DNA from: Gemmatimonadota bacterium
GTDB taxonomy: Bacteria > Gemmatimonadota > Gemmatimonadetes > Gemmatimonadales > Gemmatimonadaceae
DNA: 64,000 nucleotides
Reading direction: 5' to 3'
NCBI GenBank assembly: GCA_040389905.1
Contig: JAZJZK010000023.1
Coordinates: 64,307-128,306 of the forward strand
Below are positions 31,205 to 40,395 of this stretch, piece after piece (the stretch's first letter is position 1; each line of letters starts with the position of its first letter). A model generated the notes under the pieces. It saw nothing but the letters and a program-made list of their open reading frames with translations. It searched no databases and was not told the origin of the DNA. Made by a program: the position numbers and the translations under genes.

Positions 31205-32584
31205 GTGACTACCCTGAACGTGCATGTCCCTATGACGGCGATCGAAGAGGTAACTCCCCATCGTGACGATGGTTGGCGCAGGGCACGCGTCGCCCCAAGC
31301 CTGGCTGAGGTCTACCGAAGCGTACCCACCGCCGGACGCACGAAGTGGCGGAAGATGCTCGCCTTCGCCGGCCCGGGATATCTTGTGGCTGTCGGCTACA
31401 TGGACCCGGGCAACTGGGCAACCGACCTCGCAGGCGGCTCTCGGTTTGGATACGCGCTCCTCAGCGTCATCCTCATCTCGAACCTGATGGCGGTTCTGCT
31501 GCAAGGCCTCGCCTCGAAGCTCGGAATTGTCACGGGGCGCGATCTCGCACAGGCCTGCCGAGACGAGTACAGCAAGCCCGTCGTCTGGGCACTCTGGTTC
31601 CTCTGCGAAATCGCCATTGCGGCGTGTGACCTCGCCGAAGTGATTGGCTCCGCGATCGCACTCAATCTTCTGTTTGGCATCAAGCTGCCCGTCGGCGTCG
31701 CGATTACCGCGCTCGACGTTTTGCTGCTCCTGTACCTCCAGAACAAGGGCGTGCGGGTGCTCGAGGCCCTCGTCATCACGCTCGTGGCAACCGTCGGTGC
31801 GTGCTTCGCCTTCGAGTTGTTGCTCGCGCGGCCGGACATCGTGGGCGTCATGAAGGGCTTCATCCCAACGACGTCGATCATCACCGATCGCGAAAAGCTC
31901 TACATCGCCATCGGCATCCTCGGCGCGACGGTGATGCCGCACAACCTGTATCTCCACTCGTCGATCGTGCAGACGCGGAAGTACGAAGAGAATGCCGCCG
32001 GCCGCAGGGAAGCGGTCCACTACGCGTTCATCGACTCGACGATTGCGCTGTCGATCGCACTCTTCATTAACGCGGCCATCCTCATCGTTGCGGCCGCGAG
32101 CTTCCACACCACGGGAAACTCCTCGGTCGCAGAAATTCAGGATGCATTCAAGCTGCTGACGCCACTGCTGGGCGCGGGCGCGAGCACGGTCTTCGCCCTG
32201 GCGTTGCTCGCGTCCGGGCAGAACTCCACGCTCACCGGCACCCTCGCCGGCCAGATCGTCATGGAGGGTTTCCTCGACATCCGAATCCGTCCGTGGCTGC
32301 GTCGCCTGATCACGCGCTTGATCGCCATCGTGCCGGCGGTCATTGTGGCAATCATTGGAGGCGAATCTGGCACGGCAAAATTGCTCGTCCTGAGCCAGGT
32401 CATTCTCAGCCTTCAGCTTTCGTTCGCGGTATTCCCGCTGGTAATGTTCACGTCGGACAAGCTGAAGATGGGCGAGTTCGTGAACCCGGTGTGGCTCAAG
32501 GTCCTGGCGTATCTTGTTGCCGCGGTGATCGCGTCGCTCAACGGCTGGCTGCTCTTCCAGACGTTCGCAGGCTGGCTCGCGTAG
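31205..32584 (+). CDS. mntH: Nramp divalent metal (Mn2+) transporter
   Basis: [25 protein letters not shown]. Confidence 0.95.
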
Positions 32585-32641
32585 CAGCGCATCGCACGGC
32601 TCGTCGCAGGCTCCGTTCGTCAACGCACCTCGCAACCCACC

Positions 32642-33085
32642 ATGTACACGCGAATTCTCGTTCCACTCGAACACTCGGACTACGACGACGCCATCCTCAC
32701 CCACGTCCGCGATCTCGCACTGTTGTGCAAGGCGTCCGTGGTGCTGATCCATGTCGCGGACGGATGGGCAGCGCGCAATCAGCAGCAACTGGCGCTCCGC
32801 GAGAGCGACGAAATGAAGCGCGACCGCGACTACATCGAAGCGCGCGCGGGCGCACTGGGTGAGGCCGGCCTCGCGGTCGAGAGCGTGCTCGCTGGCGGAG
32901 ACCCAGGCAGCGAGATTGCCGCCGCCGCGGAACGGGAGGGGTGCGACCTCGTGGCAATGAGCACACACGGCCACAAAGGTGTGCAGGACCTCATCCGGGG
33001 CAGCGTCGCGAATGAGGTCCGTCACCGGACCACGGTGCCGGTGCTCATGGTGCGCGGTTCGTTGAGGAAGCTCCGTTCGGTATGA
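32642..33085 (+). CDS. Universal stress protein
   Basis: ILVPL..GDP..DLVAMSTHG..GSVA..PVLMV. Confidence 0.9.
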   Translation: MYTRILVPLEHSDYDDAILTHVRDLALLCKASVVLIHVADGWAARNQQQLALRESDEMKRDRDYIEARAGALGEAGLAVESVLAGGDPGSEIAAAAEREGCDLVAMSTHGHKGVQDLIRGSVANEVRHRTTVPVLMVRGSLRKLRSV

Positions 33086-33774
33086 GCGCCGCGCACGCAG
33101 TGCCGTCGCTGACGGGTCCCGTCGAAGACTACCTCAAGGCGATCTACGATCTCGAACGGGTCGGTGAGCCGGCCGCGACGAATGACATCGCGCTGCGCCT
33201 CGCCATCTCGCCGGCGTCGGTGAGCGGCATGATGCGTCGCCTCGCCGACCAGGGGTTGATCACGCACGAGCCGTACAGGGGCGTGCGGCTCACGACCGAC
33301 GGCCGTCGTGCAGCGTTGCGCACCCTGCGCCGGCACCGCATCCTCGAGTGCTATCTCACCGAGGTGCTTGGCTACCCATGGGACAGAGTGCACGAGGAAG
33401 CGGAGCAGCTCGAGCACGCCGCGTCCGAAGAGCTCATCGATCGAATGGCCGCCGCACTCGGTGAGCCGACGCGCGATCCGCACGGCGCTCCCATTCCAAC
33501 GCGTGATGGTCGCGTCGAGGAAAGCGCGCTCCGCAGTCTTGCCGAGATGGCGCAGGGCGACCACGTGCGCGTGCGGCGCGTGCAGGATGAGGACGCCGAA
33601 CGCCTCCGCTACCTCGCGGAACTGGGCATTCGACCGGGCGCACAGGTGCGCATCCTCGACAAGGCACCATTCGACGGACCCATTACCGTCTGGGTCGACG
33701 ACGCGGGTGGTGGCTCTACGCGAGCGATCGGCGTCGGCCTGGCTGGTCAGGTGTTCGTCGACACACTGGACTGA
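33082..33774 (+). CDS. mntR: DtxR/MntR metal-dependent repressor with FeoA-like domain
   Basis: EDYLKAIY, RRHRILE, EAEQLEH, DPHGAPIP. Confidence 0.9.
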   Translation: MSAAHAVPSLTGPVEDYLKAIYDLERVGEPAATNDIALRLAISPASVSGMMRRLADQGLITHEPYRGVRLTTDGRRAALRTLRRHRILECYLTEVLGYPWDRVHEEAEQLEHAASEELIDRMAAALGEPTRDPHGAPIPTRDGRVEESALRSLAEMAQGDHVRVRRVQDEDAERLRYLAELGIRPGAQVRILDKAPFDGPITVWVDDAGGGSTRAIGVGLAGQVFVDTLD

Positions 33775-34487: not shown

Positions 34488-34597
34488 GGCCGTCTCCTGC
34501 TGATGGGGTGTGAGTTTGTCGCTAACGATGGCAAAATCAGGACCGCCACTCACACCCGAGCTTGACAGGCGCGGTCCGCTCGCGCCGATTCAACAGC

Positions 34598-35407
34598 ATG
34601 AGCGCGCTCGTCCGTCTCGGGACGCAGGGCTGGAACTACGACGCGTGGGTCGGCCCCTTTTATCCAGTGGGCACGCGACCCGCGGACTATCTCACCGTCT
34701 TCGCCCGCGCGTTCGACACGGTCGAGGTGGATTCGACGTTCTATGCAATTCCGCCGGTAAAGACGATACGCGCATGGTATGCGCGCACGCCGTACGGTTT
34801 CACCTTCGCGTTGAAGATGCCGCAGGAGATCACGCACGAGCGGAGATTCCGGGACTGCGCGGATGTTGCCGACATGTTCTACGATCGTGCACGAGAGCTT
34901 GGCGAGAAGCTCGGCCCCGTCCTCATCCAGCTCGCGCCCGATTTCGGACCGAATGAGTTGCCCGCCATCGCGAACCTGCTCCCGGCGCTGCCGCGCGACA
35001 TCAAGTTCGCGATCGAGTTTCGCCATCGTGGCTGGATCAACGAAGGCATCGTGGCCTTGCTCGCGGAGCATGCCGTCGCGTTGGCGATCACCGATGCGCG
35101 GTGGATTCCGCGCAAGCAGATGATGGCGCTCGCGACGCGACCGACGGCGGGCTTCAGCTACTTCCGGTGGATGGGTGCGAATCGCGACATCGTGGACTAT
35201 TCCCGGATCCAGATCGATCGCTCCATGGAACTCGAACATTGGACCGGGGTGCTGGAGACGCTCGCGAATATTCGCGTGAAGGTCTACGGTTACGTCAACA
35301 ATCACTTCGCCGGCCACTCACCACAGACTGTCCGAGAACTACAACGCATGCTCGGCATGCCGCAGGTCGATCCCGACTCACTTGGAGAGCAGATATCGCT
35401 GTTCTGA
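34598..35407 (+). CDS. DUF72 family protein
   Basis: GTQGW.Y..W...FYP, VEVDSTFY, FAIEFRH, VNNHFAG. Confidence 0.92.
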   Translation: MSALVRLGTQGWNYDAWVGPFYPVGTRPADYLTVFARAFDTVEVDSTFYAIPPVKTIRAWYARTPYGFTFALKMPQEITHERRFRDCADVADMFYDRARELGEKLGPVLIQLAPDFGPNELPAIANLLPALPRDIKFAIEFRHRGWINEGIVALLAEHAVALAITDARWIPRKQMMALATRPTAGFSYFRWMGANRDIVDYSRIQIDRSMELEHWTGVLETLANIRVKVYGYVNNHFAGHSPQTVRELQRMLGMPQVDPDSLGEQISLF

Positions 35408-35425: not shown

Positions 35426-36610
35426 ATGGCCACCACCGTCGATCTCCTTCACGGCCCGTACACCGCCACCGTCGGGCCTCGCGCACACGTCGAATCGTTC
35501 GTCTGGCACACGTATGCCGTCGTACTCGCAGCCACGATGCTCGTCGTCGGCTTGATCTGGGACATCTCGTGGCACATGTCGATCGGCCGCGACACGTTTT
35601 GGACGCCCGCGCACCTCCTCATCCAGGGGGGTGGGTTGCTCGCCGGACTGTCCTCGGGTGCGATCGCGCTGAATACGACCTTCCGGGGATCGGACGATGC
35701 GAAACAGAGCAGTGTACGCTTCTGGGGATTCCGCGCTCCATACGGCGCATGGGTGTGCGTTCTGGGCTGTGGCGCGATGCTCACCTCCGCTCCCTTCGAT
35801 GACTGGTGGCACGGCGCCTACGGACTCGACGTCCGCATCGTAAGCCCACCGCACATTCTGCTGGGCATCGGAATGATGGCCATCGTACTTGGCGCCATGT
35901 TGCGAACGCTCGCCCTACAGAATGGAGACGAGGAACGCATCCGCTCGCGCGCCGCGCTGATGTTCGCATGGTCCTCCGGCTTGTTCATCACGATACTCGG
36001 GACGCTGTTGCTCGAGTGGTCGGACCGCGGCTACATGCATCTGGGCACCTTCTACATCGCCTGGGGCATCAGCGTCCCGATCGTGCTCGTGGGGACGACG
36101 GTGAGTGGCCGCAGTCGTTGGCCCGCAGCGACCGCGGCGCTGATCTACATGACCGTACTCGCGCTCACCAGCTGGATCCTCATGCTCTTTCCCGCCACGC
36201 CCAAGCTCGGTCCCATCTATCGCGATATCACGCACTTCGTCCCGCTCGACTTTCCGATCCTCCTCGTATTCCCTGCACTCGCCATCGACCTGACGTGGCG
36301 TCGCGTTCGCGAGTGGCCGGTGCTTCGTGCGAGTGCGGCACTCGGGATCGCGTTCATGCTCACGCTCATGCTCGTGCAGTGGCCATTCTCCAGCTTCCTG
36401 ATGGCGAACGGCCGCAACTGGTTCTTCCACACCGACAACTTCGTGTACTGGCAGGACATCGCGTCGGAACACTTCTCATTCCAGTTCTACGCGCAGGCCG
36501 ATGATGCCCCGCCGCTGATCGTGCAGTTTGCCTACTCCATCGTCGCCGCAGTGATTGCCAGCCTCGTCGGGCTATTGCGTGGTCGGTGGATGACGCGGGT
36601 ACGGCGGTAA
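35426..36610 (+). CDS. Polytopic membrane protein with two PmoC/AmoC-like D-x3-H-x12/13-H motifs
   Basis: About 9-10 TM segments; WDISWHMSIGRDTFWTPAH and FDDWWHGAYGLDVRIVSPPH. Confidence 0.8.
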   Translation: MATTVDLLHGPYTATVGPRAHVESFVWHTYAVVLAATMLVVGLIWDISWHMSIGRDTFWTPAHLLIQGGGLLAGLSSGAIALNTTFRGSDDAKQSSVRFWGFRAPYGAWVCVLGCGAMLTSAPFDDWWHGAYGLDVRIVSPPHILLGIGMMAIVLGAMLRTLALQNGDEERIRSRAALMFAWSSGLFITILGTLLLEWSDRGYMHLGTFYIAWGISVPIVLVGTTVSGRSRWPAATAALIYMTVLALTSWILMLFPATPKLGPIYRDITHFVPLDFPILLVFPALAIDLTWRRVREWPVLRASAALGIAFMLTLMLVQWPFSSFLMANGRNWFFHTDNFVYWQDIASEHFSFQFYAQADDAPPLIVQFAYSIVAAVIASLVGLLRGRWMTRVRR

Positions 36611-38127
36611 TGCGAACACTCACGCTTGTTGTGCGTTGCGCCGCGGCGCTCTCGCTTGCGGTTTTGCTGGCGGCGCACATTGGAAGCCCGAATGTCTATT
36701 TGTCCGGAAAGGCAGGACCATATACGGTCGATATTACTGTCCGGCCACCCGATGTCGTCCCTGGCATTGCCCAGGTGTTTGTCAACGTGAATGACACGAG
36801 CGTTTCGCGCGTGGTCATTCGCCCCGTGTTCTGGCGGGCGGGCAGCAGGGGCGCTCCTCCTGGCGACGACGCCAAAGCCGTGAAGGGATCACCCGGCGCG
36901 TATGCGGGTGAAGTCTGGTTGATGGCGTCGGGCAACTACGCGATCGACGTCACCATCACCGGCAAGGCGGGTGCAGGTACGCTCCGCGTGCCTGTCACAG
37001 CGCTGGCAACGGCGCAGCGTCAACTCGGCCCATTCCTCACGGTGTTGCTCGCGATTCTCGGGACGCTCCTCCTGGCCGGGGCGATTACCGCTGTCAACGC
37101 CGCCGCGGGCGAGAGTCTCGTTCCACCGGGCGAACCGGTCGCGCCGGAACTACGGAAGCGTGCGCGCCGAGCAACGATCATTGCGATTCCCGTGTTAGCG
37201 CTGGTTGTCTTCGGCGGCGCGAGTTGGTGGAAATCGGAAGCGGACCAATACCGCCGCACGTTGTATCGTCCGCTGAAGACGAAGACCAGCGTCGCTGTCG
37301 TTAATGGCGTGCCGACGTTGACGATGGAGCTCGCAGAGGAGAACGCGCGACGCGCATTCGGGCGCCCAATCATGCCCGACCATGGCAAGATCGCGCACAT
37401 GTTCATCGCCAACGCCGACTCGACCTTCGTTTTTGCGCACCTCCATCCGGCGATGCCGGGGCGGATGACGTTCACGACGCCCTTGCCGGCGCTCCGCGCG
37501 GGCAAATACCGCGTGTTCACGGATGTGGTGCACGAGACGGGCTTTCAGCGAACGCTCGTCGATTCGATCACATTGCCCGCCGCGCTCGATTCCGCCGGCG
37601 AGAAACGCCTCGGCGTGGATGACGCGTGGTTCTCCGATAGCGGCACGGCGGTCACGCGATTCGTCACGATCGTTCGTGGCCACGAGGAGGGTCTCTATGT
37701 GCGATGGGCAGGTCCCGACAGCGTCGTCGCCAACCGCACGGGCGTGTTGCGCTTCGGAATGTCCGACAAGCACGGTGCACCGGCGATGATCGAACCGTAC
37801 ATGGGCATGTCCGGTCACGCCGTCGTGATGCGCGACGATGGCAAGGTCTTCGTGCATCTCCACCCAAGTGGCACCGCGTCGACCGCATCGCAACTCGCGC
37901 TCGATCTTCGCGATCGCGGCGATACGTCGCGAGATGGCCGCTTGCGCCTGGACATGGCGTCGCCTGCGCACGACATGGCGATGCTCCCGACGCCGATGCG
38001 CGATATCAGCTTTCCGTACGCGTTTCCTTCGCCGGGCCGCTACCGCATCTGGCTCCAGGTGCGCCTGCACGACAAAGTGCACACGACCGCGTTCGACGTC
38101 GTCGTGGCTCCAGAGTCGACGATGTGA
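36610..38127 (+). CDS. Exported, membrane-anchored His-rich putative copper-binding protein
   Basis: Signal peptide ending LAA|H, two central TM helices, two H..HLHP motifs; TAATG overlap with the upstream gene. Confidence 0.78.
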   Translation: MRTLTLVVRCAAALSLAVLLAAHIGSPNVYLSGKAGPYTVDITVRPPDVVPGIAQVFVNVNDTSVSRVVIRPVFWRAGSRGAPPGDDAKAVKGSPGAYAGEVWLMASGNYAIDVTITGKAGAGTLRVPVTALATAQRQLGPFLTVLLAILGTLLLAGAITAVNAAAGESLVPPGEPVAPELRKRARRATIIAIPVLALVVFGGASWWKSEADQYRRTLYRPLKTKTSVAVVNGVPTLTMELAEENARRAFGRPIMPDHGKIAHMFIANADSTFVFAHLHPAMPGRMTFTTPLPALRAGKYRVFTDVVHETGFQRTLVDSITLPAALDSAGEKRLGVDDAWFSDSGTAVTRFVTIVRGHEEGLYVRWAGPDSVVANRTGVLRFGMSDKHGAPAMIEPYMGMSGHAVVMRDDGKVFVHLHPSGTASTASQLALDLRDRGDTSRDGRLRLDMASPAHDMAMLPTPMRDISFPYAFPSPGRYRIWLQVRLHDKVHTTAFDVVVAPESTM

Positions 38128-38131
38128 TCGT

Positions 38132-39553
38132 CTACGCGGGCTGCAGTGTCAGCGTGAACGTCGAGCCAACGCCGAGCACACTATCGGCGACGAGGTCGCC
38201 TCCCATTCCGCGCGCGAGGATGCGGCTGATCGACAGACCGAGGCCAACGCCTTCGCGGGGCGCGTGCCCGTTGATCTGAACGAACGGCTCGAAAATCATT
38301 CCGAGCTTGTCCTCAGGGATGCCAATGCCGCTGTCCGAAATGGCGATGGAAATCGGGCGGTCCAGCGTCGTGCCGCGCGTGACGCGAACACGAATGCGGC
38401 CGCCGGGGGGCGTGAACTTGTTGGCGTTGCCCAACACGTTGAGAAGGATCTGATGCACCTTCTCCCGATCCGCGTGGGAGAGTATCGGCGTATTCGCCGG
38501 AGCGCATTCGACGTCGCACGTGAGCCCGCCGGCCGAGAAGAGCGGTTCGAGCAACGCTGTCACTTCCGCGACGAGAGTATCGACCGAAAGGGTCTCGACC
38601 TCGTACCGCACCTGTGATGACTCGAGGCGCGCGAGGTTCAACACTTCATTGATGAGACCCAAAAGATGCCGCTGGCTCTTCTGGACTCGCGCCAGCGCCT
38701 CATGCTGCTTCTCGCTTACGGGGCCCAGCAGTTCCATGTCGATCAACTGCACGTGCCCTCCGATTGCGTTGAGCGGCGTGCGAAGCTCGTGGCTCATCAC
38801 CGCGAGAAACTGGTTCTTCGCGCGATTTGCCGACTCCGCGCGTTCGAGCGCAACGCGCAGTGAGCGTTCCAGCACGTTGCGCCGCTCGAGTTCCGTCTCC
38901 AGCGCCTGCGCGCGCTGCTGCAGGATGGCAATTTCCCGCAGCCGCTCCGAAGTGCTCGCGCCGACGTAACGCTCGGTCGGGATAACGTGGGCATGCGTGC
39001 CGCAGATCGATTGGACCGAGGCGGTTTGCGTCCCCTCGGCGAACGTGCGCATCGAGTATCCACACAGCAGTGAGAAGCGGTACGTCTGCGCGAGTTCGTT
39101 CCAGATCTCCTCCAACTCGAGCGCGCCCTGGACATTGCCTGCTCGGCACAGCACGTCGACCATCTCGCCGTAGACGCGCACGGCGCTGGTGCTCAAGTTG
39201 CTGCTGAACTGCCGGAGGATCGCGCCGACGGTTACACGGCAGCGTTCCGGATTTGGATGCGCCCCATCCATGAAGGCTGCGAGCATCTCAGCGGCATCCT
39301 GCAGGCCGAGCTGGCCGCGGAAGATCGCTCGGTCGACATCGAATCCACGTGTCTCGAGATGCTCGCGGAAGCCGGCGAGGTGCTCGAGCGTCGCGACCGC
39401 GATGACAGGCTGTCCCTGCGCCAGTCCACTCGCCAGAAAATCTCCGACGGCGTTGACGAGGAACTCGTCGTCGTCATAGAACTGGACGGCGTGGGTTCGT
39501 TGTATTCCAACGCCAATTGCGTCGTACGACTCGACGATCGACGTACTCGCCAT
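38132..39553 (-). CDS. MEDS-domain sensor histidine kinase
   Basis: HAVQFY..GEMVDVL..LEEIWN..LLCGY (MEDS); SHELRTPL, NANKFT, DSGIGI, GLGLSI. Confidence 0.88.
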   Translation of the reverse strand: MASTSIVESYDAIGVGIQRTHAVQFYDDDEFLVNAVGDFLASGLAQGQPVIAVATLEHLAGFREHLETRGFDVDRAIFRGQLGLQDAAEMLAAFMDGAHPNPERCRVTVGAILRQFSSNLSTSAVRVYGEMVDVLCRAGNVQGALELEEIWNELAQTYRFSLLCGYSMRTFAEGTQTASVQSICGTHAHVIPTERYVGASTSERLREIAILQQRAQALETELERRNVLERSLRVALERAESANRAKNQFLAVMSHELRTPLNAIGGHVQLIDMELLGPVSEKQHEALARVQKSQRHLLGLINEVLNLARLESSQVRYEVETLSVDTLVAEVTALLEPLFSAGGLTCDVECAPANTPILSHADREKVHQILLNVLGNANKFTPPGGRIRVRVTRGTTLDRPISIAISDSGIGIPEDKLGMIFEPFVQINGHAPREGVGLGLSISRILARGMGGDLVADSVLGVGSTFTLTLQPA

Positions 39554-39678
39554 CTCCTCGCTGGCCTGACGAACCGCGACTCCCATACCGATACACCCCG
39601 CTCGCCGAATGGCGGCAATCCTGTGACAACGGTTGTGCGCGCCTGTGACGCAGGCGTTACAGGCTTTAGTATCTGCAC

Positions 39679-40395
39679 ATGCCGCGCCGCATCTGGGTTT
39701 TCTGTTTCTTTGCAGCAGTCTCAGCCGCTCTCTTCCTGCGGCTCGGCGTCTGGCAGAGCATGCGGCACCTGGAGCGGCAGCGTCACAATGCGCTCGTCGC
39801 GCACCAGAAGCAGGCTGTTCTCACGCGCTTTGTGTCCTTGCCGCGCGACACAGGCGAGGCACACTACAGGGCCGCTGTCGTAAACGGACGGTTCGATTAC
39901 ACGAACGAAATCGTGGCCAGTCCGCGAACCCGCCGCGGCTCACCTGGCGTCGAATTGCTCACGCCGGTGCGCGTGGCCGGTAGCGATACGGCGATCCTGG
40001 TCAACCGTGGCTGGGTCTATTCGCCGGACGCTGCGACCGTCGATCGCAAGCGTTGGATGGAGGGCGATTCCGCTCACCTGACCGGCTATGTCGAGTTGTT
40101 CGCAGACGATACGGTCGTCACGACCGCCAGCGATCCGCGTATTGTGCGACGAGTCAGTCAGCGGGAAATCGCATCGAAAGTGCCGTATCCGGTGGCACCG
40201 TACTACCTCGTCGCGACCGGGGACACTGCGGACCTCGCGCACCCGGCACGGCGCGATCTCCCCGCGATGGATGAAGGGCCACATCGAGGCTACGCGATCC
40301 AGTGGTTTTCCTTTGCCGCCATCGCCGTGATCGGCGCGGGGATCGTGGTGTACCGCGAGAAGCAGGACCGCGGAGTAGTTGAAGGGTCGTCGTAG
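39679..40395 (+). CDS. SURF1 family protein
   Basis: LGVWQ, ILVNRGWV, H.GYAIQWF. Confidence 0.9.
   Translation: MPRRIWVFCFFAAVSAALFLRLGVWQSMRHLERQRHNALVAHQKQAVLTRFVSLPRDTGEAHYRAAVVNGRFDYTNEIVASPRTRRGSPGVELLTPVRVAGSDTAILVNRGWVYSPDAATVDRKRWMEGDSAHLTGYVELFADDTVVTTASDPRIVRRVSQREIASKVPYPVAPYYLVATGDTADLAHPARRDLPAMDEGPHRGYAIQWFSFAAIAVIGAGIVVYREKQDRGVVEGSS

Follow-up and report, generated by a model that had tools for sequence, protein, structure and literature searches.

The window studied here, a 64,000-nucleotide stretch of contig JAZJZK010000023.1 from a Gemmatimonadota bacterium, contains two adjacent genes (gene 1 and gene 2), which an earlier note on the same DNA described as a highly divergent copper membrane monooxygenase (CuMMO) made up of a PmoC-like and a PmoB-like protein. 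The locus raises the question of whether such a pair is related to the particulate methane monooxygenase (pMMO) and ammonia monooxygenase (AMO) and, if so, what it does. In a single chain, gene 1 encodes a distant homologue of the PmoC plus PmoA core of the CuMMOs, and gene 2 resembles PmoB, so far as these tests reach, in layout only. A description of this family was not found in the literature searched (subscription journals and supplements were outside its coverage); the accessible parts of PMC13492269 and 10.1101/197269 deal with canonical operons only.

The N-terminal half of gene 1 is homologous to PmoC, AmoC and HmoC (PF04896). Two motifs, DISWHMSIGRDTFWTPAH and DDWWHGAYGLDVRIVSPPH, carry D46, H50 and H63, and D125, H129 and H143, respectively, at the places given in the earlier note, and share with the C subunits the spacing D-x3-H-x12-H followed by x-x3-H-x13-H and the W-H, R-D-T and P-x-H context. 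The six ligands are invariant in 86/86 aligned close relatives and in 25/25 distant sequences from the Chloroflexota and Actinomycetota, and are kept in 127–134 of the 129–137 covering rows among the 150 best 50%-representatives. The second-shell residues W49, R55, D56, P61, D135 and P141 are kept in both the near and the distant branch. Both triad spacings, 60–90 residues apart, occur in 5 of the 48,134 six-frame open reading frames of the source genome, such that spacing alone is not unique; the motif stands above chance because the six ligands are conserved and the profile matches that of PmoC. With close relatives the N-half matched the C-subunit profile at 88.5%, and with a broad set at 94.8% (E 5e-8, score 54.8), the controls scoring 9.9 (reversed columns) and at most 23.3 (30 column shuffles). 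Both triads were aligned within one colinear block, D46/H50/H63 with PmoC D128/H132/H145 and H129/H143 with H203/H217 (L087 numbering; the full second PmoC triad is N199/H203/H217), and the proposed PmoC-like spacing and context are thereby borne out. The C-subunit hidden Markov model matched 38/47 family members (pairwise E < 0.01) and PF04896 matched 10/86 (best E 0.0024), while the nearest named family in Atlas was AmoC (score 0.88, a lead only). The reference C, A and B alignments consisted of sequences from metagenome loci, three of each subunit having been checked against Pfam, together with M. chubuense HmoCAB.

Gene 1 differs from PmoC, AmoC and HmoC in that it has no Pfam match (nor an NCBIfam match), retains the four-helix core only, carries a fused A-like domain and has an Asp at the CuD site; position 125 is Asp in all of the 86 close and 25 distant relatives compared with Asn in 33/33 reference C subunits. 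Outside the two motifs no His, Met, Cys or acidic residue is kept in both branches (M118, E197, H205 and D288 are conserved in the near branch only), so there is no family-wide relay of such residues through the membrane. Sequence and profile searches of the PDB returned no pMMO or AMO chain; matches to CD20 and Fab entries were weak (E 0.014–0.18) and were set aside. PmoC chains were not among the listed fold matches of the whole gene 1 chain, where each entry is represented by one chain and the chains shown were A subunits, and in a wide fold search with the whole chain modelled the N-half matched generic four-helix bundles.

The C-terminal half of gene 1 has the fold of PmoA/AmoA (PF02461; 7s4h_B and 9pxf_D) over 203 residues. 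In a Foldseek search with the gene 1 model (predicted local distance difference test (pLDDT) 92.3) the two best rows were pMMO and AMO chains with probabilities of 0.99 and 0.98, and the E-values to PmoA/AmoA were 0.06–0.2, the best two being about 0.06. After realignment the nine best rows were all pMMO or AMO chains of A-subunit length (Z 11.7–13.2), eight of which cover residues 168–394; the best, 7s4h_B, had a Z of 13.2 and a root mean square deviation (rmsd) of 3.8 over 203 aligned residues, and the next unrelated row a Z of 9.2. The earlier suggestion that the C-terminal residues of gene 1 stand in for the missing PmoA is therefore upheld. The motifs FP-x-ALAID and QWPF align with FPS-x-PGAI-x-D and NWP. 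The differences are the low identity (10–15%) and the fusion of the gene 1 counterpart behind the C-like half. The match of the C-half to the PmoA profile is weak (8.8%; score 26.6 vs at most 17.6 for shuffles). In the wide search the C-half also matched S-components of energy-coupling factor (ECF) transporters (5edl_A and 4rfs_S; Z 8.8, rmsd 3.7, 162 aligned) and PmoA 3chx_B (Z 8.0); the ECF likeness is weaker than the PmoA match and no conserved ECF module lies beside the pair. A fold search of viral models with gene 1 gave nothing clear, the weak match being an uncharacterised 236-residue Hyperionvirus protein, A0A3G5AC47 (probability 0.66, E 0.79, TM-score 0.41 by target).

Gene 2 has the layout of PmoB/AmoB (PF04744), namely a signal peptide, a likely mature N-terminal His, a soluble domain, two membrane helices and further soluble domains, and takes the third place in the C-A-B order. 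The claim that it is PmoB-like stands for this layout but is not supported for homology by the profile and fold searches. The model (pLDDT 93.3) has a signal-like helix, three beta-sandwich domains and two membrane helices. His23 is invariant in 78/78 sequences, with Ala or Gly just before it in 76 of them, suggesting that the signal is likely cleaved before it. The CuB ligands of PmoB are the N-terminal His and an HxH in the first domain; gene 2 keeps His23, has no HxH in its first domain and no conserved His within residues 24–135. Its HxH motifs are instead in the C-terminal domain pair, which makes no contact with gene 1 in the modelled complex, a further difference from PmoB. Fold searches with the whole 505-residue model returned immunoglobulin (Ig) and fibronectin type III domains, and PmoB was not among the listed matches. 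Searched for domain by domain, the PmoB profile matched gene 2 at no more than 10.9%; the Ig domain scored 19.7 against the PmoB-N profile vs at most 16.7 for 30 shuffles, with a probability of 2.4%.

The sole Pfam or NCBIfam match of gene 2 is YtkA, at residues 34–114 (PF13115, 26.1 bits with a cut-off of 25.9). The first domain superposes on CrdA (9ll2; Z 10.5, rmsd 2.5, 99 aligned) and CopC (Z 8.9, rmsd 3.4, 95 aligned), rows which stand among many generic Ig domains with similar Z. A membrane-tethered YtkA-type Ig domain is also found in Bacillus subtilis CtaK and YcnJ (CopC-CopD-YtkA) and Helicobacter pylori CrdA, and the combination of a membrane subunit with an exported His-bearing domain is common to these copper proteins and the pair. 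Domains 2 and 3 are repeats of one another (93%), carry nine invariant Asp, His or Met residues and resemble the X protein of copZ-X-copA operons, which is encoded beside copA; the X proteins AAur_pTC10131 and MYCCH_RS28025 matched the gene 2 profile with E-values of 3e-26 and 3e-22. Both have a tandem His-rich pair, the difference being that X stands in copper-export operons and that in gene 2 the pair is fused to an Ig domain and a membrane anchor. X proteins between copZ and copA also occur at L212:4647-5642 and L213:4692-5630, as a tandem His-rich pair belonging to no Pfam family.

Structure prediction of the two proteins together supports binding of gene 2 to gene 1; such multimer modelling had been proposed earlier as a check. 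The pair had an interaction prediction score from aligned errors (ipSAE) of 0.80 in three runs, the best of three controls being 0.00; the mark used is reached by 116/157 solved and 2/215 mismatched pairs, counts that hold roughly here. Contact agreement was at least 94% and partner pLDDT at least 84. In the model the first membrane helix of gene 2 packs on the gene 1 helix 106–124, and the Ig domain, including the invariant W103 and M105, contacts gene 1 residues 55, 127–141 and 258–265, which form the loops surrounding the triads. The residues listed for the modelled interface include neither His23 nor any of domains 2 and 3. The job was for a 1:1 pair with Zn included, and its output gave no metal contacts.

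The pair belongs to a large and widespread family. At least 7,629 relatives of gene 1 (90% clustering) were found with about 8,000 candidates scored, and 2,527 relatives of gene 2 among about 8,000 scored; the closest named relatives of the pair are from the Gemmatimonadaceae. Record titles name the Gemmatimonadota, Acidobacteriota, Verrucomicrobiota, Myxococcota, Methylomirabilota, Chloroflexota and Bacteroidota. Presence is mostly single-copy and patchy: 33/151 genomes in the Gemmatimonadota (the phylum of the window), 18/151 in a Chloroflexota sample (the phylum of a Thermomicrobiales record), 12/201 in the phylum common to genomes G185 and G336 (11 without the unpublished G360) and 2/301 in that of a Mucilaginibacter record, where counts include each centre genome and 6–15 candidates were scored per genome. 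The linkage check proposed earlier came out positive, a gene 2 homologue lying directly downstream of gene 1 in 77 of the 80 loci fetched; of the other three, one is at a contig edge and two have no gene 2 within 6 and 3.2 kb. The genes overlap by 1 or 4 nt in 41 of 63 complete pairs, and coupling by TAATG is confirmed in the window itself.

Other architectures were found in more distant relatives. In the Chloroflexota sample seven loci pair a C+A gene with a short gene for a signal, an Ig domain and a membrane helix, while in others the Ig domain is fused to the C-terminus of C+A. Actinobacterial plasmid copies are single chains, most of them carrying AxA-His-Asp-Pro internally, ahead of the Ig domain, and one lacking that His; such chains, of 475–490 residues, occur in cultured Streptomyces, Mycolicibacterium and Leifsonia. 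Examples of the single-chain form are WP_024126299.1 of Streptomyces sp. F2 and WP_014805643.1 of M. chubuense, and a two-gene form is WP_284688389.1/390.1 of Chondrinema. The core of the family is C+A+Ig+helix, as these elements are common to the fused and short-partner architectures, and the His-rich pair is an addition of the branch to which the pair in the window belongs. An 806-residue fusion of gene 1 and gene 2 in this branch looks like a frameshifted read-through, and what looks like a C/A split in G029 comes from a one-base frameshift within a single gene. Three paralogues keep the PmoA-like half and have lost all (L214:5502-6644 and L215:5347-6834) or some (L216:4855-5997) of the triad residues; for L215 and L216, where the downstream DNA is long enough to tell, there is no partner within about 5 kb. 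A divergent Chloroflexota subfamily (L249, L247, L250, L240 and L241) has Phe for Arg55 and a long branch, with no gene 2 profile match beside it. A still more distant protein (L225:1552-2247; E 8.7e-4) has an Asp-x3-His ... Pro-x-His motif, suggesting a wider superfamily. The M. chubuense NBB4 plasmid (L277 and L258; NC_018022.1) carries canonical hmoCAB, a C+A+Ig fusion and a copZ-X-copA operon.

In a quick, unrooted tree, for which a careful search is unfinished and from which archaeal AmoC was left out, 49 family rows and 33 PmoC/AmoC/HmoC rows are on opposite sides of one branch (Shimodaira–Hasegawa-like approximate likelihood ratio test, SH-aLRT, 99). The branch is about 3.6 changes per site long. 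CuMMOs are encoded by three genes, C, A and B, and this family by two, or one in the fused forms. Neither gene reaches the Pfam cut-offs for PF04896, PF02461 and PF04744. Its gene arrangement, its scores against the Pfam cut-offs, the CuB ligands, the lack of the CuD Asn and its position in the tree all place the family outside the CuMMOs. The source genome, 84.6% complete, has one copy of each gene and no match to canonical C, A or B subunit profiles, consistent with the earlier remark that methanotroph and nitrifier genes are absent from the window.

What the pair does can be proposed with less certainty. Our preferred reading, a tentative one based on the sequences and models, is a copper-dependent redox enzyme with a substrate other than methane or ammonia. 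The pair may, on this tentative view, represent an undescribed sister family of the CuMMOs, that is, a one- or two-chain O2-activating copper enzyme with CuC and CuD on a fused C+A protein and an Ig-type copper-loading partner replacing PmoB, which would oxidise its substrate in soil and sediment heterotrophs. Activation of O2 would take place at the two adjacent Asp-His-His sites of gene 1. The substrate would be hydrophobic and membrane-borne, a lipid or a small hydrophobic compound being a guess. The His-rich pair of gene 2 would collect periplasmic copper and, with the Ig domain, load or shield the triad sites, such that gene 2 would fill the place of PmoB with no detectable kinship to it. 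All six ligands would lie on a single membrane face, the outer, because helices 1 and 3 carry them where they end and helices 2 and 4 where they begin, and because in the model the loops that bear them contact the exported Ig domain. Copper is the likely triad metal, given the homology, the partner domains and the plasmid context. An enzyme is favoured on four grounds: the two triads and their second shell have persisted across a very long evolutionary distance, the A-like half travels with the triads, there is no cross-branch metal relay deeper in the membrane, and this branch is not tied to copper operons. According to the part of PMC13058606 consulted, the C-subunit sites are the proposed catalytic centre of the CuMMOs, and HMO is wholly inactive when CuC is mutated.

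Several observations weigh against an enzyme. Asp takes the place of the CuD Asn, 4/7 of the short separate partners and several fused forms lack the N-terminal His, and a branch of about 3.6 changes per site leaves ample room for a changed function. A conserved third gene, dedicated dehydrogenase or reductase was sought beside the pair and none was found; the neighbourhood hence suggests no pathway for an organic substrate. In gene 2 the two kinds of soluble domain each have kin in copper trafficking. Five of the seven actinobacterial plasmid loci adjoin annotated copA, copZ, csoR, multicopper oxidase, cupredoxin or copC genes, copC being directly upstream of the fusion on one plasmid; a sixth adjoins YHS/CopY-type genes and the seventh has no copper neighbours.

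The last of these observations favour copper handling, the alternative already raised as serious in the earlier note, which has gained support from the partner-domain kin and the plasmid copper islands. This explanation is possible and ranks close behind a redox enzyme. The partner would capture periplasmic copper and pass it to the Asp-His-His sites. There it would be retained, oxidised or reduced, or passed on for uptake or for the assembly of an oxidase, a scheme similar to that of CopC-CopD-YtkA (YcnJ). The YtkA-like first domain of gene 2 fits such a role, since in B. subtilis, according to the accessible text of PMC13344008, CtaK and YcnJ aid CuA assembly through their YtkA domains. The kin of the C-terminal pair between copZ and copA, the M. 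chubuense island, in which the C+A+Ig fusion and the X protein are about 7 kb apart, and the likeness of the C-half to ECF S-components point the same way. The plasmid loci are, however, few and partly related, and the islands also hold envelope enzymes. Moreover, queries for core copper genes (CopA, CopZ, multicopper oxidase, CsoR, CopC, cupredoxin, YHS, DUF305 and Csp) matched 0/80 loci of this branch (889 kb) and 0/18 Chloroflexota loci, compared with a background of 11/362 windows in the source genome. The CopA/CsoR/multicopper oxidase/CopC cluster of that genome is on another contig, three related loci match only a BlaI/CopY-type regulator, and Pfam identified one HMA gene and one Cu/Zn superoxide dismutase among the neighbours. 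Neither gene has a CopC or CopD match in Pfam or NCBIfam, the membrane part being PmoC/PmoA-like instead, and the lack of a family-wide ligand relay deeper in the membrane also argues against handling. A COX1-family gene occurs in 18/18 family-positive Chloroflexota genomes vs 126/151 overall, the kin not being independent; this weakly fits both an enzyme and copper handling. The two would meet if the substrate were copper itself (Cu(I) oxidation), a case counted here under copper handling.

It is improbable that the triads bind zinc or iron in an enzyme built on the PmoC/PmoA scaffold that acts as a membrane hydrolase or modifies lipids. Sites of two His and one carboxylate are common for both metals, both triads are of this type with an Asp, and Lgt, Lnt or sortase genes are near three distant homologues. 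Zn and Fe have also been associated with pMMO/AMO sites (PMC13058606, in the part available). The partner domains and the actinobacterial context nevertheless point to copper. Still less probable is convergence, in which a generic four-helix bundle would have been joined to an S-component-type fold. The marginal Foldseek E-values, the generic bundles matched by the N-half in lists of one chain per entry that include no PmoC, and the weak PmoA profile match of the C-half would fit it. Convergence is, however, hard to invoke because each half independently matches a different subunit of the same enzyme, and the order is that of the operon; against it are also the gap between the nine PmoA/AmoA rows and the next fold, the C-subunit model matches across the family and, as a lead only, the Atlas assignment. 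Least probable of all is a true, very divergent methane or ammonia monooxygenase, which would account for the two candidate active-site triads and the PmoA fold but not for the position outside the PmoC/AmoC/HmoC side of the tree, the negative PmoB homology searches, the heterogeneous neighbours with no dedicated downstream pathway or the patchy, mostly single-copy presence in groups that, to our knowledge, are not known as methane or ammonia oxidisers.

The features of the locus are listed in Table 1. A sigma-70 promoter match was sought and none was found. The neighbours of this branch are heterogeneous, as judged from scans of 135/199 and 88/88 representatives, clipped to 420 residues, with a custom gene picker that lost the module in 13/102 loci. 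A DUF72 gene (34562-35407, same strand) ends 18 nt before gene 1 and recurs among close relatives only (a cluster of nine). Downstream of the pair are a MEDS-domain histidine kinase gene (38132-39586, minus strand) and a SURF1 gene (39679-40395, plus strand), the latter recurring in 13 loci, all from close relatives. At 31205-33774, 1.7 kb upstream, are genes for an Nramp/MntH-like transporter, a universal-stress-type protein and a DtxR/MntR-like regulator (names read off the translations); a distant Chloroflexota homologue, L266, also adjoins Nramp and DtxR genes. TetR-family regulators directly adjoin four distant homologues (L210, L263, L264 and L277).

Table 1 Features of the two-gene locus, in window coordinates.
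Feature	Position	Strand	Remarks
Gene 1	35426..36610	+	394 aa polytopic membrane protein, PmoC-like + PmoA-like fusion
PmoC-like four-helix half, residues 18-165	35477..35920	+	Helices from model; hhalign 94.8% vs PmoC/AmoC/HmoC
CuC-type triad D46-H50-H63, with conserved W49, R55, D56, P61	35561..35614	+	
CuD-type triad D125-H129-H143 (Asn at first position in PmoC), with conserved W128, D135, P141	35798..35854	+	
PmoA-like half, residues 168-394	35927..36607	+	Z 13.2, rmsd 3.8, 203 aligned to 7s4h_B
TAATG stop/start overlap	36608..36612	+	Base 36610 common to gene 1 TAA and gene 2 ATG
Gene 2	36610..38127	+	505 aa counted from ATG, His-rich partner
Predicted signal peptide and invariant His23, likely mature N-terminus	36610..36678	+	
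YtkA/CrdA-type Ig domain of gene 2, residues 26-131	36685..37002	+	PF13115 E 1.3e-5; CrdA Z 10.5
Two membrane helices of gene 2, 141-166 and 179-215	37030..37254	+	From model
Tandem His-rich beta-sandwich pair of gene 2	37270..38112	+	D257, H258, H263, H277, H279; M400, H403, H416, H418

According to the relevant sections of PMC13058606, it is still debated whether CuC, CuD or both form the catalytic site of pMMO and AMO, and there is a single report of purified active AMO. In the present family, which is large and has no Pfam or NCBIfam model, the triads are kept, there is no CuB-type domain and single chains occur in cultured hosts, so the question of the catalytic site becomes testable by ordinary genetics and spectroscopy. 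If the pair is an enzyme, it would offer a pared-down model of the pMMO/AMO active site that is amenable to genetics, and would inform on the origin of those enzymes. If it handles copper, it would link the centre of methane and ammonia oxidation to a copper-trafficking protein, which would likewise bear on how these enzymes arose.

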